Source: Candidatus Saccharimonadota bacterium (GTDB lineage Bacteria; Patescibacteriota; Patescibacteriia; 2-12-FULL-60-25). Taken from it: 32,000 bases of DNA. The position numbers and the translations under genes were made by a program. The notes under the pieces were generated by a model. That model did no database searches, had not been told where the DNA came from, and worked only from the letters and a program-made list of their open reading frames with translations. This document shows, piece by piece, positions 4,541 to 31,830 of the stretch. Each line of letters starts with the position of its first letter. Positions within the stretch are counted from its first letter, which is position 1. The DNA is taken from NCBI GenBank assembly GCA_023898425.1, contig CP060222.1, forward strand, positions 120,001-152,000, in the 5' to 3' direction.

Positions 4541-5668
4541 TTAATTTGGCAAGGTTAAGAGCTTTTCGTGAGCCTCTAAGGTCTTTTGAAGAGGGAATCG
4601 TTCTGTGACGACGCGACGCGCTTGGTGGCCAAAGGCTTCGCGTGAGTCCGGGTCTCTTTCGATGCGTAACATAGCTCTGGCGAGATGTTCTGGGTTATGA
4701 GCGTCTACGATGAGTCCGGCGTCAGGCTCTATCATCCAACGCATAGCACCGACATCTGAGACAATGCAGGGGAGTGAAGCTGCCATAGCTTCGAGGAGCG
4801 AGATAGGCATCCCTTCTTTGGCGGATGGTAATGCGTAGGCATCAAAAGCTGCGAGATATTGCGAGGCATTTTCTTTGGCGCCGAGCAAGATGAAATACGA
4901 ATCTGCGCCGGTGGTTTGAATGGCGTTTTCGGTTTCAGTACGCAAAGGTCCATCACCGATAATTGCGACTACTCCGGTGCCGCCGAGTTCACGATAGCGC
5001 TTTGTTGCAAGTATGAAATTTGGTACATCTTTGGCAGGATAAAAATTCGCGATTGAACCGAAGATGAAATCTGAGCGACGGAGGCCTAGGGTTTCACGAG
5101 CGATTTCACGCGTGAGAAGCTGCGCATCAAAACTCGCGACGTCCACACCATTTGGAATAGAAAGAAGTTGTTGCTTTGGTTGAATGCCTTCACGCTTTGC
5201 CGCATCAACATCACCCGGATGCACGCAAACAATAACGTCACGAAACTTTGCGGCGATGCGTTCAGCAAAAATAATCATCGTACGTTTTGTTTTTGACATT
5301 GGTTCGAGAAAAGCCCAACCACCAATGCAATACACAATATTTTTTATACCTGAAAAATATCCAGCAAGAGAACCAAGTACACCCATCTTTGAGCTATTAA
5401 GATGTATGGCATTAGGTTTGAGTGCTTTGAGTATCTGCGTAAGTTCAATAAGTGCGCGTATATCTTTGTATGGATGGAGCTCGCGTTGCATCCAATGTAA
5501 TCGATGAAAGGGGATTTGTTCCGCAGTACATTTTTCGACAAGCCACTCACCGTCACCGGCAAGTACATGTACTTCATGACCAGCTCGTTTCAAAAAACGT
5601 GCCAAATCAAAAACGAAGACGGTAGCACCGCCCGGAACGGCTCGTGTGATGCAAATGGCAAATTTCAT
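4541..5668 (-). CDS. Glycosyltransferase, GT-B fold, family 4-like
   Basis: 375 aa. The N-terminal MKFAICITRAVPGGATVFV pattern and the C-terminal PSAKEGMPISLLEAMAASLPCIVSDVG (E-x7-E region) are typical of GT4 retaining transferases. Confidence 0.8.
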   Translation of the reverse strand: MKFAICITRAVPGGATVFVFDLARFLKRAGHEVHVLAGDGEWLVEKCTAEQIPFHRLHWMQRELHPYKDIRALIELTQILKALKPNAIHLNSSKMGVLGSLAGYFSGIKNIVYCIGGWAFLEPMSKTKRTMIIFAERIAAKFRDVIVCVHPGDVDAAKREGIQPKQQLLSIPNGVDVASFDAQLLTREIARETLGLRRSDFIFGSIANFYPAKDVPNFILATKRYRELGGTGVVAIIGDGPLRTETENAIQTTGADSYFILLGAKENASQYLAAFDAYALPSAKEGMPISLLEAMAASLPCIVSDVGAMRWMIEPDAGLIVDAHNPEHLARAMLRIERDPDSREAFGHQARRVVTERFPLQKTLEAHEKLLTLPN

Positions 5669-6250: not shown

Positions 6251-6802
6251 TTATATCTTTTTCATCTGGGAGAAGTCAAGTTCGAGCGGTGTTTCACGTC
6301 CAAACATGCTTACCAAGACTTTGGCTTTGCCACGAGTAGCATCAATCTCATTGATCTTGCCTTCGAAGCCTTTAAATGGTCCATCGCCAATTTTGACAGC
6401 CATCCCTACCTGAAGATCAATGGTTACTTCTGGTTCAGCAGTGGTTGCCTCAGCACGTTTTAAGAGTGCATCGACTTCAGCTTGTGAAAGTGGTGACGGG
6501 GTATTACCCATACCAATAAAGCCAGTGACATTAGGTGTATTACGCACAACGTACCAAGAATCATCGGTGACGTTCATTTCTACGAGTACGTAACCCGGAA
6601 AAACTTTTTCTTCGACAACGCGACGTTTGCCGTTTTTAATTTTTACCTTTTTTTCTTTTGGAACAATGATATTAAAGATGAAGTCTTTCATGCCAAGCGC
6701 TTCGATGCGCTGCATGAGGCTTTCGGCGACATTCTCTTCATATCCTGAGTAGGTATGGACGGCGTACCATCGTCGTCCATAGGAGGCGGTTTGTTTTGCC
6801 AT
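6251..6802 (-). CDS. nusG: Transcription termination/antitermination factor NusG
   Basis: 183 aa. NGN start RWYAVHTYSGYE and a C-terminal KOW (VGMAVKIGDGPFKGFEGKINEID). Confidence 0.95.
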   Translation of the reverse strand: MAKQTASYGRRWYAVHTYSGYEENVAESLMQRIEALGMKDFIFNIIVPKEKKVKIKNGKRRVVEEKVFPGYVLVEMNVTDDSWYVVRNTPNVTGFIGMGNTPSPLSQAEVDALLKRAEATTAEPEVTIDLQVGMAVKIGDGPFKGFEGKINEIDATRGKAKVLVSMFGRETPLELDFSQMKKI

Positions 6803-6825
6803 AGTTGTTTAGAAAAAAAAGTGCG

Positions 6826-7301: not shown

Positions 7302-7955
7302 ATGGGTGCCAAAGAATATATTCAAATCTTAGAACATCTAGGCGGCCTGATTCGCGAGAGCCATGTTGTCTATGCTTCTGGATTGCATGGTGACGCCTAT
7401 ATCAACAAAGACGCTTTGTACCCACATACGAACTATACAAAATGGTTTTGCGATGGTCTGGCGAAGGGGTTTGCCGACGAGTCGGTTGATGTTGTGGTCG
7501 GGCCAGAGCTCGGAGGAATCATTCTTTCACAACACGTAGCGCATCACCTTACTAATATGGCGGGGCGTGATATTTTATCACTCTACGCAGAAAAGCTTCG
7601 GGATGGAACCAAAGGATTCCATTTCAATCGCGGATATGACGCTTTTATTCGTGATAGTAATGTCCTCATCGTTGAGGATGTACTTACAACTGGCGGTAGC
7701 GTTCGTAAGGTTGTAGAGGCTGTACGCGCTTGTGGGGGAGTAGTGACAGGGGTCGCAGCGCTTTGTAATCGAGGCAACGTAACGTGTGAACAACTTGGTG
7801 GTGTGCCAAGACTTCATTCATTATTTGACCTTGAAATGAACAGTTATACCGAAGAAGAGTGTCCGCTCTGTGCAACAGGTATCCCGATCCGTACAGATAT
7901 TGGAAAGGGTGCGAGCTATCTCAAAAAGTTGAGATTTCACGCAAAGACAGAATAA
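7302..7955 (+). CDS. Type I phosphoribosyltransferase (orotate-PRTase-like)
   Basis: PRPP loop VLIVEDVLTTGGS. ATG at 7302 is preceded by AAAGGGG. The ORF track starts at TTG 7269, which has no better support. Confidence 0.75.
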   Translation: MGAKEYIQILEHLGGLIRESHVVYASGLHGDAYINKDALYPHTNYTKWFCDGLAKGFADESVDVVVGPELGGIILSQHVAHHLTNMAGRDILSLYAEKLRDGTKGFHFNRGYDAFIRDSNVLIVEDVLTTGGSVRKVVEAVRACGGVVTGVAALCNRGNVTCEQLGGVPRLHSLFDLEMNSYTEEECPLCATGIPIRTDIGKGASYLKKLRFHAKTE

Positions 7956-7971
7956 TCACCAGCTATTTCTG

Positions 7972-8007
7972 AAAAACACCACGAAGGCTATCGTGGTGTT
8001 TTCATTT
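7972..8007 (+). terminator. Intrinsic terminator after the PRTase gene
   Basis: ACACCACGA-AGGCTA-TCGTGGTGT followed by TTTTCATTTT. Confidence 0.7.
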
Positions 8008-8075
8008 TGTGGACGTGTTTCGTGGAGGTGGTTGACGTATTGCTGAGACTACCCTTGACAATATCCCCAGTTTTC

Positions 8076-8104
8076 TTGCGTATTCTGAACGTTGCGTTCA
8101 TAAT
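8076..8104 (+). promoter_or_regulatory. Candidate sigma70-type promoter for hup
   Basis: TTGCGT, 17 nt, CATAAT. The same -35 hexamer appears in the tuf candidate promoter. Confidence 0.3.
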
Positions 8105-8159
8105 GTCCTTACAAACCCGACTTTTTCTTAATCATAACCTCGGGTTAACGCATCGCCCT

Positions 8160-8441
8160 ATGGCAAAAATGACAAAATCCCAGATCATGTCCGAGCTTGC
8201 TGCTAAGACTGGTCTCAGCAAGAAAGACACGACAATGTTTGTAGAAACACTTGTAGACATGGCTTTGACTCAAGTAAAGAAGAACGGTGAATTTGTTCTT
8301 CCAGGCATTGGTAAGCTCGTTAAAGTAAAACGCCCTGCTCGTGTAGGTCGCAACCCAGCAACAGGTGAATCCATCAAGATCCCTGCAAAAACGGTAGTGA
8401 AGTTCCGCGTAGCAAAGGCTGCAAAGGACGCTGTTCTCTAA
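8160..8441 (+). CDS. hup: DNA-binding protein HU
   Basis: 93 aa from ATG 8160: MAKMTKSQIMSELAAKTGLSKKD..., with the arm motif RVGRNPATGESIKIPA. The upstream in-frame extension in the ORF track is not HU-like. Confidence 0.93.
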   Translation: MAKMTKSQIMSELAAKTGLSKKDTTMFVETLVDMALTQVKKNGEFVLPGIGKLVKVKRPARVGRNPATGESIKIPAKTVVKFRVAKAAKDAVL

Positions 8442-8455
8442 GAGAATTGCATCAC

Positions 8456-8484
8456 AAAAGACCCCTTAAAAAGGGGTCTTTTGC
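8456..8484 (+). terminator. Intrinsic terminator after hup
   Basis: AAAAGACCCCTT-AAA-AAGGGGTCTTTTG. Confidence 0.75.
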
Positions 8485-8512
8485 TTGACAAAATATTATA
8501 GTCTGCTACAAA
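8485..8512 (+). promoter_or_regulatory. Candidate promoter for the 8534 gene
   Basis: Perfect TTGACA, 16 nt, TACAAA. A strong SD (GAAGGAGG) follows. Confidence 0.35.
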
Positions 8513-8533
8513 TCAATTACGAAGGAGGTCACC

Positions 8534-9364
8534 ATGGAAGCGCCGTTAAAGACGCGTGCCGTGAAGCCTCTGTTCGGAGGTCTCACGCGTGCAAAAGTAC
8601 ATGTCATGCGTTATGAGCTTGGCGGAAGGTATGGATCGATTTTTTTCCGGCTACTCTATTGGGCGCAGTTTTCGCACCAAGAAGGGTGGGTGGTAAAGCT
8701 ATACGATGATAACGGAAGTCTCTTGTTAGAGGCGAATGGGTTCGAGGCAGGGTCGACAGAGTCACAAGCTCTAGAAAATGCCATTCAGCGCTTTATTAAG
8801 CTGCGAGATGCTCCCTATCTACTCATCCGTGATTTATTGGGGCAAAAGCAGTTTGCGAGTGACGATAAGCCTCCTTTTGAAGTGTACCGACTTCCTATGG
8901 AGTTACATCAAGAAGATGTTACTACAAAACAAAAGTCCAGACACAAAAAGAAGTCTGTCACAAGCAAGAATCACAAGGTGCCGCATAGTCCGCGGATAAA
9001 GCTTTCGTCCTTGATAAAGTTACGGCCAGCAGAGCTGGTAGGACTCCTATCAGAATTACGCGTCATTGATCTTTTTGATCGGTCGGTCTGGTCCGTCGGT
9101 GAGAGGCCAGCTTGGTTTCATTCTATAACGAGCAGCACTCAATACGAGGACTTTCAAGAAGGTATTGATCTTTGGGTACACTGCAATGACGGAGCCCCGC
9201 CAATACCGATACAAGTGAAGAGCTCAGGAACGGGCGCAATGTACGCGAACACCAAGGTACCTATTATCGTGGCTGGGCAAAACTACACAGATCAGTTTAT
9301 CTATAAGCAACTGATACATGAATGTGATTTGCATAGATCGCATTATCTAGAATGCGTTTCATGA
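8534..9364 (+). CDS. Hypothetical protein with a C-terminal PD-(D/E)xK nuclease-like motif set
   Basis: 276 aa. The C-terminal third reads YED...GIDLWVHC...IPIQVKSS, an E / D / (Q)xK arrangement as in restriction-endonuclease-fold (DUF4365-like) proteins. A K-rich linker occupies the middle; the N-domain is unrecognised. GAAGGAGG lies 5 nt before the ATG. The TGA stop is followed by a hairpin. Confidence 0.4.
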   Translation: MEAPLKTRAVKPLFGGLTRAKVHVMRYELGGRYGSIFFRLLYWAQFSHQEGWVVKLYDDNGSLLLEANGFEAGSTESQALENAIQRFIKLRDAPYLLIRDLLGQKQFASDDKPPFEVYRLPMELHQEDVTTKQKSRHKKKSVTSKNHKVPHSPRIKLSSLIKLRPAELVGLLSELRVIDLFDRSVWSVGERPAWFHSITSSTQYEDFQEGIDLWVHCNDGAPPIPIQVKSSGTGAMYANTKVPIIVAGQNYTDQFIYKQLIHECDLHRSHYLECVS

Positions 9365-14619: not shown

Positions 14620-15132
14620 ATGATACAAAAAAATTGGAGAATCATTGCACTCGTCTTGTTGGTCGCTGCTATTATTGGCATATTTAGAATTTCGGATTCG
14701 TTGATATATCTACCGATAGGATTATTAACGCTCGCGATACTTGGCTTAAAAGAGTATAAACAAGCTCACTTTGGTTATCTTCTAGGGTCTATATTGATTG
14801 CGCCTATAAGCTTGTTACTGCCAGTTCTATTAGCGTCTGTCCCAGTGGTTATTAATTCAAGGATAGATATTGTCTTATACTGGTGGGTTATTTGGTTTAT
14901 TTATGCTATTGGGATGAGAAGGTATTTTATTGACTGGATTCGACCAGAGCTAAGAATATGGAGCGTATGTTTATCTGGTGGAATACTTGCATTGATTTGG
15001 ATCAAGGGTGTGCCCCTGCCTCTCATGCAACGTGAAGCTTTTCTTGACCTTCTATTTATTCCTGGGTGTATTTTAGTTGGTGTGCCGTTTTTAACATGGG
15101 CGTACAAAGCAGTATTAACACGTATTAAATAA
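14620..15132 (+). CDS. Hypothetical polytopic membrane protein (about 5-6 TM helices)
   Basis: Starts at ATG 14620 (MIQKNWRIIALVLLVAAIIGIF...); the ORF-track start at 14578 lies inside the fusA terminator. Hydrophobic segments run throughout. Visibly more AT-rich than the flanking genes. Confidence 0.6.
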   Translation: MIQKNWRIIALVLLVAAIIGIFRISDSLIYLPIGLLTLAILGLKEYKQAHFGYLLGSILIAPISLLLPVLLASVPVVINSRIDIVLYWWVIWFIYAIGMRRYFIDWIRPELRIWSVCLSGGILALIWIKGVPLPLMQREAFLDLLFIPGCILVGVPFLTWAYKAVLTRIK

Positions 15133-15215
15133 TTAGTTATACCAAGCCATGGGAGGGTCGTTGAGCTTCTCTTGGTGGGTTCGCATCAGCAATCATCTCT
15201 GCTAGGATCTCTACT

Positions 15216-15560
15216 ATGGAATGGAAACGCATCGAGAATGTCATCCGTCGCACAAAATTGCCGATGATTGTGACGGAGGGAGTAGAAGAGCCGTTGATTA
15301 TCATGCCCCTCACCGCCTACGAAAAACTAATAATAAAAGATGAAATTAATACAGAGGTAGAGGGCGCTAAGCCTGAAGCGGTCGAAGCGATAGGGGATGA
15401 GACATTCTTATTGCCCGATATGAACGAACAAAAAGAATCTGTTATACTCGAAGAGGTGGCATCACCAGCCATGCCTTTTACCGGCTTTTTGCGAGAGGAT
15501 CAGGGTCAAAATTTTGCTCAAATTAGCGATTTTTCAGCCTCTGAACGCCTGATGTTTTAA
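15216..15560 (+). CDS. Hypothetical small acidic protein; the N-terminus is weakly Phd/YefM-antitoxin-like
   Basis: 114 aa. [25 protein letters not shown] resembles the beta-strand/helix start of Phd/YefM-type proteins. The acidic C-terminal half appears disordered. Confidence 0.35.
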
Positions 15561-25207: not shown

Positions 25208-25900
25208 ATGTCTGAAGAAATCAAACAAGCAGCAGAGAGCACAGCTCCTGCCGCGGCTCCAGCTCCTGCTGAAGCCCCTGTCGCAGCTCCAGCACCAACG
25301 GATAAGCCTGCACCTCGTGGTGCTCGTCCAGCTTTTGGTGCAGGTGGACGCGGTGGTCGTGGTGGTGCCGGTGGCGCTCGTGGCGGCCGACGTGACAATC
25401 GTCGCGGACGCGGTGACGTTCCTGCTGAGGCAGACTATGAAGAAAAGAACGTTGAGGTTGCTCGTGTTACACGTGTAACCAAGGGTGGTAAGCGTATGCG
25501 CTTTCGTGTTCTTTCGGTTATTGGTAACCGTAAGGGCCGCACAGGTTTTGGTCTCGCGAAAGGCGTGGATGTTGCAGGTGCAAGCAATAAAGCAAGCACT
25601 CAAGCAAGAAAATCGCTTATTACCGTCCCACTTGTAAACGAAACGATCCCTCATGCTGTAACAGCAAAATACGGTGCAGCTATGGTGCTTCTTAAGCCAG
25701 CTCCAAAAGGTTCTGGTGTAAAAGCAGGTGGCGCTGTTCGTATCGTGCTTGAACTTGCTGGTATCCCGAACGTTGTTTCGAAGATCCTCGGTTCAAACAA
25801 TAAGACCAACAACGTCAAAGCAACGTTTGAGGCGCTTCGTATGCTTCGCCTTCCGGTGAAGACAGAGAAGTCTGAAGAATCTGCTGTAGCGAAGAAATAA
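25208..25900 (+). CDS. rpsE: 30S ribosomal protein S5 (uS5) with a ~75-aa Ala/Pro-rich then RGG-rich N-terminal extension
   Basis: 230 aa. The core is VARVTRVTKGGKRMRFRVLSVIGN..G..GFG.AK. The extension reads GAGGRGGRGGAGGARGGRRDNRRGRGD. Confidence 0.96.
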   Translation: MSEEIKQAAESTAPAAAPAPAEAPVAAPAPTDKPAPRGARPAFGAGGRGGRGGAGGARGGRRDNRRGRGDVPAEADYEEKNVEVARVTRVTKGGKRMRFRVLSVIGNRKGRTGFGLAKGVDVAGASNKASTQARKSLITVPLVNETIPHAVTAKYGAAMVLLKPAPKGSGVKAGGAVRIVLELAGIPNVVSKILGSNNKTNNVKATFEALRMLRLPVKTEKSEESAVAKK

Positions 25901-28383: not shown

Positions 28384-29631
28384 TTAACGCAAGTTCTTTA
28401 CGTAAGATTGAATTTCTTTTTTTAGTAGGTTCAAGTTTTTGTTTTCAGTTGTTGTTAGCGCTTGATCAATCCATGTCGCGATTTGTTTCATGTCTTTTTC
28501 TTTGTAGCCTTGTGATGTAACGGCGGCAGTACCGAGTCGAATGCCTGAGGTGACTGTTGAAGATTGCTCGTCAAAAGGAAGAAGATTTTTGTTTACGGTG
28601 ATGCCAATAGATTCAAGTTTTTCTTGCGCTTCAAGACCGGTAATCTTTTTTGGTGTGAGATCAACAAGAAAGCAATGATTGTCTGTGCCGCCCGATACAA
28701 TTCGGTAGCCTTTTTTTGAAAGCTCGTTTGCAAGGCATTGGGCATTTTTTATCACTTGTTTTGCATAGCTTTTGTAAGCTGGCGTTGCGGCTTCTGCAAA
28801 GCAAATTGCTTTGGCGGCAATCACGTGTTCAAGCGGACCGCCTTGTGTACCAGGAAAGACAGCGGAGTCTAATAGCTCACTTAGTTTTTTCTTTGCTTTT
28901 AATTTGCTGTACGGATGATTGATGTCGTGGCGTAACATGATAATTCCACCGCGTGGACCGCGAAGCGTTTTGTGTGTTGTAGATGTAACAACATGCGCGT
29001 AATCAAACGGATCATTGAGAAGTTTAGCTGCGATTAATCCTGCTGGATGCGCGATGTCTGCGAGCAGAAGAGCTTTTACTTCGTCAGCGATTTTTCGGAG
29101 TGTTTTATAGTCCCAGTCACGGCTATATGCGGATGCGCCACAGATAATGAGTTTAGGCTTTTCTTTTTTTGCGATACGACGAATCGCAGCATAGTCGAGC
29201 TGTTCTGTTTTTGGGTCAAGTTGGTAGCTCACGCCACGATAATTTTTACCGCTCGCATTTGCTATGAATCCGTGCGAAAGATGTCCACCGTGTTTGAGGT
29301 CTAATCCAAGAATCGTGTCACCCGGCGAGAGGAGAGCTTGATAGACGGCAAGATTTGCCTGTGTGCCAGAATGCGGTTGGACATTAACCCAGCTCGCGCC
29401 AAAGAGCTTTTTTGCTCGCTCGATAGCAATCTGTTCAATCGTATCTACCGTTTCGCATCCCGCATAATAACGCTTAAAGGGCTTACCTTCAGCATATTTA
29501 TTCGTAAGTACGGAACCTGTCGCCTCTAATATATCTTGACTAACGGTGTTTTCTGAGGCGATGAGATTGATGGTGTGCTTTTGGCGAACCTCTTCTTTTG
29601 TAATTAAATACTGGATTTTCTTGTCTTTCAT
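28384..29631 (-). CDS. glyA: Serine hydroxymethyltransferase
   Basis: NLIASEN, TNKYAEGKP.KRYY.GCE, VQPHSGTQAN, TTHKTLRGPRGG. The ATG at 29631 (MKDKKIQ...) aligns with typical SHMT N-termini. The ORF track extends to GTG 29679. Confidence 0.95.
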   Translation of the reverse strand: MKDKKIQYLITKEEVRQKHTINLIASENTVSQDILEATGSVLTNKYAEGKPFKRYYAGCETVDTIEQIAIERAKKLFGASWVNVQPHSGTQANLAVYQALLSPGDTILGLDLKHGGHLSHGFIANASGKNYRGVSYQLDPKTEQLDYAAIRRIAKKEKPKLIICGASAYSRDWDYKTLRKIADEVKALLLADIAHPAGLIAAKLLNDPFDYAHVVTSTTHKTLRGPRGGIIMLRHDINHPYSKLKAKKKLSELLDSAVFPGTQGGPLEHVIAAKAICFAEAATPAYKSYAKQVIKNAQCLANELSKKGYRIVSGGTDNHCFLVDLTPKKITGLEAQEKLESIGITVNKNLLPFDEQSSTVTSGIRLGTAAVTSQGYKEKDMKQIATWIDQALTTTENKNLNLLKKEIQSYVKNLR

Positions 29632-29643
29632 AGGAGGGGTGTC

Positions 29644-30459
29644 TTGTATAAAGTACCAGTTTTTGCTATGTTTCGCCACATGTCATTGCTCAAAACACCA
29701 GAAGAGATCGCTATCATGAAAGAGGGGGGTATTATCCTTTCTCGAGCACTTCGTGCCGCAGCAGACGCCTGCGTCGAAGGTGCGCATACAAAAGACCTTG
29801 ATGCTATTGCACGCAAGGTCATTGAAGACGCTGGAGCAACACCGTCATTTTTGGGGTACCGTATACATGGTGAGGGGATTCCATATCCTGATACCCTCTG
29901 CGTATCGATTAACGAAGAGGTGGTACATGGTTTAGCAACACCTGATCGCGTCATTAAAAAAGGCGATGTCGTAAGCTTAGATATTGGCTGTTGGTATAAA
30001 GAACTCTGTACCGATATGGCGATGACGGTCATTGTTGGCGAAGTAGATGAAAAAGTAAAAGAGCTCGTAAAGGTTACAAGAGAGGCACTGGTAAAGGGGC
30101 TCTCTGTCGTAAAAGCGGGTCGTTATATTCATGACATTGGTGCCGCGATCGAAGATTTTGTTAAACCTTATGGCTTTGGCATAGTTAAAGATCTTGTCGG
30201 CCATGGTGTTGGTCATGCTGTTCACGAAGATCCGCTTGTGCCTAATTATCGCGATCGACATATGCCTAAGGTAAAAATGCTCGAAGGGATGGTTATCGCG
30301 ATTGAACCAATGATCACTCTTAAAAAACCTGGCGTCCATATGAAAGATGATCAATGGACGATCGCAACAAATGACAAAAGTATTTGCGCGCACTCAGAGG
30401 TTACCGTTGCTATTACAAAAACAGGTTATGAATTAATCACCCCTTGGCCAGATGCCTAG
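29644..30459 (+). CDS. map: Methionine aminopeptidase, type I
   Basis: Metal-ligand pattern (DIGCWY..LCTDMAMT, GHGVGHAVHE, IEPM, SEVTV). TTG 29644 is preceded by AGGAGG (6-nt spacer). The internal ATG at 29680 (MSLLKTPEEI) matches canonical MetAP N-termini, so the start is ambiguous. Confidence 0.9.
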   Translation: MYKVPVFAMFRHMSLLKTPEEIAIMKEGGIILSRALRAAADACVEGAHTKDLDAIARKVIEDAGATPSFLGYRIHGEGIPYPDTLCVSINEEVVHGLATPDRVIKKGDVVSLDIGCWYKELCTDMAMTVIVGEVDEKVKELVKVTREALVKGLSVVKAGRYIHDIGAAIEDFVKPYGFGIVKDLVGHGVGHAVHEDPLVPNYRDRHMPKVKMLEGMVIAIEPMITLKKPGVHMKDDQWTIATNDKSICAHSEVTVAITKTGYELITPWPDA

Positions 30460-30489
30460 GGTTGATTTTATTATTGGTTTCTGCTAGCG

Positions 30490-30514
30490 TCCTTGTACCG
30501 TAAAACGGCAAGGA
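30490..30514 (+). promoter_or_regulatory. Hairpin sequestering the Shine-Dalgarno of the orphan gene
   Basis: TCCTTG-ta-CCGT-AAA-ACGG-CAAGGA. The 3' arm overlaps AAGGAGG (30510-30516), which sits 5 nt before TTG 30522. Confidence 0.45.
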
Positions 30515-30521
30515 GGCACCT

Positions 30522-31830
30522 TTGACACAAATAAACCAAAAGTCATCCAATGCAAAAAACGAGCCTAATGTGGGGCTGCTAGCGAAGGATGTCCGTCCAT
30601 GGGTCATGAAAAAAGAGCTATAAAGCTCAGCTCAAGGAAGGTCCTATTCTAGGAGAGGGTATATATCTCCCAGGTAGAGCTTTTTCATCGCTAACACCAC
30701 TTTCTGAGTCTGTACGTCATGGTCGTAGAAGATTTGCTGAAAAGCGATGGAGTTACCCGGGGTTTGTTATTGCGCCAAATAGGAGTCGTCAGAACTCCAC
30801 TCAAAAGAGTGTTACTCACTATGTTGTCGCGGATATCTACGGATATATGAGGCAACAGTGGTATATCGTCTCTGGTCTTAAAGACGAGAGAGCTCGGATG
30901 AAGCGATCCGTTGAGGAGGCGCGCGCCACGGCGAATCTACTACTCAATAAGGGGCATTGCACCAAAGGAGAGCACGACCACATCATGTCGGCTATACTGC
31001 GACTTGAGGCTCAGTACACGGATCCAGACTTTCGTGATGAGTTCAAGATTCGCGCAGGAGATCTGTTTATGCAGGTAGGTGTAGACGGTGACCCGCGACC
31101 AATGCGCAATGCTGTACATGCGATGACGACCTATCGAGGTGCAGCACATCTCGAAAGACGTCAACGTAATACGCATATCATGCTGCATTACTTTCAGCCA
31201 AGATTCTTGCAGGTGAGGGGAGTTGTCAGACAGCTCGAAGATCGACTGCATAGACTTGCACAAGCCTTGGCAAAAAACGGTCGTCTTACTCGTGCCTATC
31301 GCGCATTTCAATCACGTATCAATAGGCAGACGCGCAATGATCTGATTACTGAGCTAGGGGATTTTTCTGACGGCATTCTGATGCTGACATGGATTCAGCC
31401 CTTTGCTCCGCAGGCATTGCGTGCAAAACAATTGAGTGATGAATTGTGCGAGACTGTAAGTCTTGGCGAACATCACGAAGTGGACATGGAGGCGCTTTTT
31501 CAAGAAGTGTGCTTTCGTGTGATGCTGCTGCGGTTAATTGTTCGTGTTGAGCGAGACGGTGTATTGCCGCTTACCTTGCTCGAGCCACAGTTGGCCGAAA
31601 CGTCAGAAAGAGAGCATCGCTCACGTATCTTTGACGTTGTGCAAAGAGATATTGCTACACTTCATCAAAAGATTCTCGACGAGCAAAACGCGTCGCTATC
31701 TCTGCTTACGGGGCTAGACCCTTGGCTAGAAAAACTGCGGCTTTGCTCTAGAAATAACTTTTCTCATCATGGCATCATGCGTAATGACATGAAGTGCTTT
31801 TCGAGCTTTTTGGTCACGGCCGAGCTTTGA
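30522..31830 (+). CDS. Orphan, predicted all-helical protein. The reading frame is broken at an A6 tract (30609-30614). The ORF-track part is 30847-31830; the fused reading is 435 codons.
   Basis: SD+TTG at 30522 opens a 33-codon ORF. The adjacent frame is stop-free from 30610 into the annotated ORF (79 codons, with no ATG/GTG/TTG). Removing one A fuses them. AGR Arg codons are frequent, unlike in the r-protein genes. The TGA stop is followed by a long hairpin terminator. Confidence 0.5.

Follow-up and report, generated by a model that had tools for sequence, protein, structure and literature searches.

A conserved 436-codon gene downstream of map is split by a two-base deletion private to one Candidatus Saccharimonadota assembly

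Two neighbouring ORFs downstream of map in the genome assembly GCA_023898425.1, one of 33 codons and one annotated as encoding a 327-aa protein, are, as judged from their homologues, pieces of a single conserved gene of 436 codons. The reading frame is broken by the loss of two bases, CG, which are present in every relative covering the site. The lesion is more likely to be artefactual than a real allele; we regard it as probable, with some reservation, that the CG loss is a small-indel error left in the consensus of a closed metagenome-assembled genome (MAG) that was probably built from long reads. No new recoding biology is indicated; the locus presents as an ordinary single-lesion frameshift in an uncharacterised gene. 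The window analysed here is a 32,000-nt stretch of contig CP060222.1 (positions 120,001–152,000, forward strand), and all coordinates are those of the window.

Results and discussion

Gene organization of the split locus

The features of the split locus are as follows.

30510..30516, plus strand: Shine-Dalgarno (SD) sequence AAGGAGG, read directly from the letters and separated from the TTG by a 5-nt spacer (CACCT)
30522..30524, plus strand: start codon TTG of the 436-codon gene; TTTGAC is invariant in a four-lineage alignment, and distant homologues begin with MTQ
30522..30623, plus strand: 5' fragment (33-codon ORF), i.e. native codons 1–29, four out-of-frame codons, and a premature TAA at 30621–30623
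30609..30610, plus strand: site of the 2-bp deletion; relatives have ATGA, CG, and AAAAAG, with the CG between these two bases
30609..30614, plus strand: A6 tract, the product of the deletion; relatives have A, CG, and A5
30610..30846, plus strand: stop-free, start-less stretch corresponding to native codons 31–109, which encode the predicted N-terminal beta-domain
30847..31830, plus strand: annotated 327-aa ORF (USN52613.1), i.e. native codons 110–436 and the stop codon, encoding the predicted helical C-terminal part

The genome is represented by a single contig of 1,032,900 bp, in which only the 327-aa ORF (locus tag H6759_00825) is annotated in GenBank. The ATG of this ORF (30847) has no SD sequence. 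Upstream of it, the same frame stays open for 79 codons, none of which is ATG, GTG, or TTG, and a TGA (30607–30609) lies immediately on the 5' side of this stretch. An earlier sequence-only reading of the window had drawn attention to this arrangement, and every coordinate that it gave for the SD sequence, the TTG, the 33-codon ORF, the A6 tract, the TAA, the 79-codon stretch, and the ATG lacking an SD sequence was confirmed. That reading put the chance of so long a stop-free stretch at about 2%, and with the base composition of the window taken into account it becomes 0.013. The window has 62 ORFs of 100 aa or more, and no other start-less extension among them is as long; the runner-up has 49 codons, and the present case is a genuine outlier.

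The two ORFs belong to one conserved gene

The sequence-only reading also held that the two frames form one gene starting at the TTG behind the SD sequence, a proposal that the homologues bear out. A search with the fused product retrieved seven homologues of 412–440 aa with a query cover of 82–100% (93–100% for six of them). At identities of 35–99%, the homologues are uninterrupted and are aligned through the junction without a break; one of them (P0001, 436 aa) is 98% identical to the fused product, and the 5' fragment aligns to residues 1–29 of the intact 436-aa proteins. Three motifs encoded inside the start-less stretch, namely LPGRAF, YPGF, and DIYAY, are common to all homologues, and residues G46, A53, P79, G80, and Y106 are invariant in their alignment. 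The homologues do not start at the methionine of MRQQWYIV, at which the annotated protein begins, but further upstream. Several of them begin with MTQ, like the TTG-initiated product, and the start region (GAAGGAGG followed by TTG ACA CA) is kept in orthologues with 49% identity (L017 and L027).

The 90%-identity cluster of USN52613.1 comprises members of 436, 408, and 327 aa. The TTG was picked by several gene callers, yielding the 436-aa members (P0001, P0009, P0012, P0013, and P0017), whereas in the 408-aa members, whose upstream DNA is identical, the callers took the ATG at the junction instead. A second 327-aa member (P0015, locus L003) was considered as an independent frameshift allele and rejected, its contig starting inside the gene. 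More distant orthologues (L016–L019, L027, and L028; 42–49% identity) are intact and syntenic, sharing the order ribosomal-protein cluster, secY, adk, map, this gene, (fpg), a DNA-alkylation-repair gene, and UDG.

In the near-identical population, 23 synonymous and 7 nonsynonymous variants were identified over the whole gene (pN/pS 0.09). Codons 1–109 contain four synonymous variants and one nonsynonymous variant (pN/pS about 0.08), and the start-less stretch (30610–30846) contains three synonymous and no nonsynonymous polymorphisms. This synonymous bias shows that the upstream codons are under purifying selection. Because the homologues do not start at MRQQWYIV and the upstream region is conserved at the protein level, the single-gene reading stands. 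USN52613.1 is a truncated call of a 436-codon gene with a TTG start, which is of direct value for its annotation.

The lesion is a 2-bp deletion beside an A-run

An allele survey by DNA pattern, first gapped and then as a plain 28-mer, returned nothing from metagenome_contigs and genome_contigs, both of which evidently lack the lineage (a JGI contig carries the sequence). The loci of relatives were therefore gathered by exact-protein look-ups. Fourteen independent loci cover the site: four in NCBI MAGs (three under the label Ca. Magasanikbacteria and one under 'bacterium') and the others in JGI, ENA, and Logan contigs.

In the nucleotide alignment, the relatives read GTC ATG ACG AAA AAG AGC and the window reads GTC ATG A--AAA AAG AGC; the longer context is ATGACGAAAAAG in L001, L002, and L004–L008 and ATGAAAAAAG in the window. 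The CG is present in all 14 covering loci and is missing from the window only, and the lesion is therefore a 2-bp CG deletion. Since the loss of CG joins the lone A to the A5, it yields the A6 tract, which is thus a by-product of the deletion and not the cause of the frame break. The sequence-only reading had repaired the frame by deleting one A from the tract, and the in silico removal of one A does give a continuous ORF of 435 codons. The frame continuity that it predicted is thus confirmed, but the actual repair is the addition of two bases, and the native product has 436 residues, one more than the 435-codon repair, with RPWVMTKKSYK at the junction (VMTKKSYK in place of VMKKSYK). More generally, a homopolymer found where a frame breaks can have arisen through the lesion instead of causing it, and sister assemblies settle this question quickly.

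Features of the protein family

Sequence searches against Pfam, NCBIfam, PADLOC, PHROGs, and PDB gave no match above threshold, and the Foldseek hits in PDB were at noise level only (best E-values 0.77 for the full model and 3.0 for a separate model of the beta-domain). A profile search of 1.84 billion representative proteins detected 13 matches at E < 1e-3, five of which were below 1e-30, and the gene was found in only two GTDB species representatives. The family thus appears to be very rare and, so far, confined to Patescibacteria, mostly from wastewater samples.

In the AlphaFold2 model (mean pLDDT 76.9, pTM 0.70), residues 1–24 are disordered, residues 31–103 form a small beta-domain (pLDDT 71 when modelled separately), and residues 106–432 form a long all-helical domain. 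Since the frameshift falls immediately before the first predicted beta-strand, the 327-aa call lacks the entire beta-domain. The protein is computed to be soluble and basic, with a pI of 9.7 overall and 10.4 for the beta-domain. From this charge and from the neighbouring genes for translation and base-excision repair, a nucleic-acid-associated role may be guessed at with low confidence. The gene for a remote relative (P0020) lies next to rpsB-tsf, a context that is uninformative on function. The models and the gene order together describe a family with a predicted beta-domain and a predicted helical domain, giving no fold match and occupying a fixed position between the ribosomal-protein/map cluster and base-excision-repair genes. 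Such an uncharacterised, Patescibacteria-restricted family, syntenic with genes for translation and base-excision repair, may merit a separate look.

Origin of the deletion: consensus error or recent mutation

Absence of the deletion from all 14 sister assemblies implies that a consensus error or a very recent mutation is most likely, and not programmed frameshifting. We consider the former the probable explanation. The native gene has 436 codons, with the SD sequence and TTG start, and its product is predicted to begin with a disordered segment, followed by the small basic beta-domain and the long helical part. The absence of CG between 30609 and 30610, in this assembly alone, shifts the frame and forms the A6 tract; the 5' fragment then stops at the TAA at 30621, and the 79-codon open stretch is left without a start, so that gene callers resort to Met-110 (native numbering) inside the gene and call a protein of 327 aa. 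If the lesion is a consensus error, the organism would make the normal 436-aa protein and no recoding would be involved. The sequence-only reading had listed a homopolymer consensus error among its possible explanations; the consensus-error part of that proposal survives, and the homopolymer part does not, as the lesion is a CG loss and not a miscounted run.

Several observations argue for an artefact. Only one assembly shows the lesion, and the gene is whole in independent assemblies of that population. The 327-aa product is confined to the NCBI record, and the allele is lacking both in the short-read assemblies and in all further public assemblies queried. The assembly also shows an excess of small indels over natural variation. 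Over the 26.4 kb of the window covered by at least two relatives, the relatives differ among themselves at 269 polymorphic sites and by no indels, whereas the window's private branch carries 21 substitutions and two indels whose lengths are not multiples of three (non-3n indels), both at A-runs (Fisher p = 0.006). These two indels are the CG loss and a difference of A8 versus A6 at 6813–6820. Such an assembly-specific excess of homopolymer indels resembles residual long-read consensus error, and it leans towards an artefact. The single 1,032,900-bp contig suggests a long-read or hybrid assembly. Circular Patescibacteria genomes from activated sludge, a sample of the same type, have been obtained by nanopore/Illumina hybrid assembly, with residual errors even after polishing (PMC8518188).

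The other reading is that the deletion is real and very recent, a mutation abolishing function or truncating the N-terminus in the dominant strain of the sample and making the gene a nascent pseudogene; at best, the 327-aa helical fragment would then be made from Met-110, with no SD sequence. We regard this as possible rather than probable. In its favour, the assembly is otherwise clean, with only three indels over the 29.5 kb covered by relatives, and the CG loss is unlike a classic homopolymer miscount. The window also represents a distinct haplotype with private SNPs, including one at 30572, 37 nt upstream of the lesion, and a real strain-specific allele is possible for this reason. Only one other private difference is present in the well-covered 4.4 kb; the chance of such clustering, about 5% by rough estimate, is only marginal and was not used as evidence. 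In addition, a family as rare and patchy as this one (13 profile matches among the 1.84 billion representatives; two GTDB species) may be dispensable. Against a real mutation, purifying selection on the gene is strong in its own population (pN/pS 0.09), all 14 sister assemblies and the distant orthologues have it intact, the indel excess points to the assembly process, and the allele is found in no short-read assembly. The sequence-only reading had listed a decaying gene among its explanations. The window copy is disrupted relative to its intact orthologues, but no decay beyond the single lesion was detected: the copy contains no other indel or stop, no sign of relaxed selection was seen in it, and its sole private substitution is synonymous.

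Recoding, slippage, and phase variation

A functional recoding or switching site is very unlikely. It could act through a +1 slip of tRNA-Lys on AAA-AAA-G, through transcriptional slippage on A6, or through slipped-strand phase variation, and each mechanism would give regulated production of the full-length protein. On A6, tRNA-Lys could formally re-pair perfectly in the +1 frame (AAA to AAA), with a stop three codons on, and low-level slippage of RNA polymerase on A-runs is known in general. Tracts that support efficient transcriptional slippage or phase variation are usually of 8–9 or more, and A6 is shorter. The frame break itself is unconserved, all 14 near-identical assemblies and all distant orthologues (35–49% identity) being in frame, and the tract is absent in the relatives, where ACG is followed by an A5 whose length is invariant among the 14. 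One orthologous gene (L016) contains no A or T run of six or more at all.

The individual mechanisms fare no better. For a prfB-like +1 shift, orthologues were never found in two frames, the codons after AAA AAA GAG are ordinary, and the sequence just upstream (GGGTCATG) contains no SD-like motif. A −1 shift at the tract runs into stops. RNA folding downstream of the tract gave z = −1.55, which is not significant relative to shuffled sequence, and an Rfam search identified no element. For programmed transcriptional slippage, the A6 was found in the window only; for phase variation, the 14 relatives are identical over ACGAAAAAG, and the window has lost CG and not a repeat unit. The proposals of phase variation and of programmed transcriptional or translational slippage in the sequence-only reading are thus contradicted, as all 14 sisters are in frame with a non-slippery ACG-A5 of constant tract length.

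A mixed reading, in which the deletion is real and low-level slippage on the A6 partly rescues a 436-aa-type protein (with VMKKSYK at the junction), is equally improbable; if true, it would make visible the earliest stage in the emergence of a recoding site. The notion that the annotation is right, with a 33-codon leader peptide, an independent 327-aa protein, and an upstream frame open by chance, is barely credible: the 327-aa ORF does stand alone in the GenBank record, but both parts are covered by full-length homologues, conserved motifs and the predicted beta-domain are encoded in the start-less stretch, the ATG at 30847 lacks an SD sequence, and the 79-codon extension is an outlier in the window.

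Other features of the window

A conserved block lies upstream of the gene.

30431..30490, plus strand: invariant block comprising the 3' end of map with the stop codon and the following intergenic sequence; candidate promoter/terminator elements upstream of the gene

This block of about 60 nt is 100% identical in the window, L016, L017, and L027, in which the downstream protein is 42–49% identical. The synonymous positions of map are invariant as well, and the intergenic part reads GGGTTGATTTTATTATTGGTTTCTG(C/T)TAG. The conservation suggests a promoter, terminator, or other regulatory element, with only weak consensus and hairpin matches. On the other side of map, the serine hydroxymethyltransferase gene glyA (28384–29679, minus strand) is in this lineage inserted between adk and map, on the strand opposite to theirs; it is not at that position in L016 (42% identity).

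The A8 at 6813–6820 lies in a short spacer beside the nusG ORF (6251–6802, minus strand); the run is A6 in three independent relatives. Apart from the CG loss, no further non-3n indel occurs in the 29.5 kb, and the A8 may be a second consensus error. In rpsE (25208–25900), an in-frame 15-bp deletion (CGTGGTGCCGGTGGC) at 25375 distinguishes the window from L011; it affects the Gly/Arg-rich N-terminal repeat of S5 (a protein of 230 aa here, against 235 aa in L011) and looks like natural variation in repeat number.

Window-private substitutions are clustered: of the 17 at depth 3 or more, 4 fall in 5065–5131 and 11 in 7778–8572, which suggests recombination patches rather than uniform divergence. 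A gene for a GT4-family glycosyltransferase (375 aa; 4541–5668, minus strand) is inserted between rplK (L11) and rplA (L1), interrupting the otherwise canonical secE-nusG-rplKA cluster, and is kept in all relatives. In the str operon region (approximately 14620–15560), two conserved ORFs with no Pfam match are present between fusA and tuf (170 and 114 aa in the relatives). Beyond the end of the window, fpg is called in L012 (GCA_035399205.1; 3738–4274) as an 87-aa zinc-finger fragment, compared with 272 aa in the other relatives, so that another assembly of this lineage may have a break in another gene.

Comparison with known systems

The site in the window is A-rich and looks slippery, an in-frame stop lies close by, and a +1 shift would restore the product; in these respects it is reminiscent of prfB (RF2) and of the A-AAA-AAG motif of dnaX. 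It differs from prfB in that the frameshift occurs in no relative and that neither a well-spaced internal SD-like stimulator nor a stimulatory structure is present, and from dnaX in that the dnaX motif promotes −1 shifting, whereas a −1 shift in the window hits a stop. Endosymbiont-type rescue by poly(A) slippage and homopolymer phase variation likewise involve an interruption at an A homopolymer, but the tract in the window is only six A long, relatives do not have it, and no length polymorphism was seen, all 14 sisters having A5. As in a recent frameshift pseudogene, the ORF is disrupted relative to intact orthologues, with truncation after codon 29; in contrast, the gene carries no further lesions, is not under relaxed selection, and showed no sign of the disrupted allele in other assemblies. 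The split-gene errors of long-read or hybrid MAGs differ from the present case in one respect, i.e. the CG beside the run is missing here and the A count is not miscounted. Like them, the present lesion is private to one assembly and located at an A-run, and that assembly has a further indel of this kind (A8 versus A6); the source is, as is typical of long-read closure, a single 1.03-Mb contig, and the gene is intact in all short-read-type assemblies.
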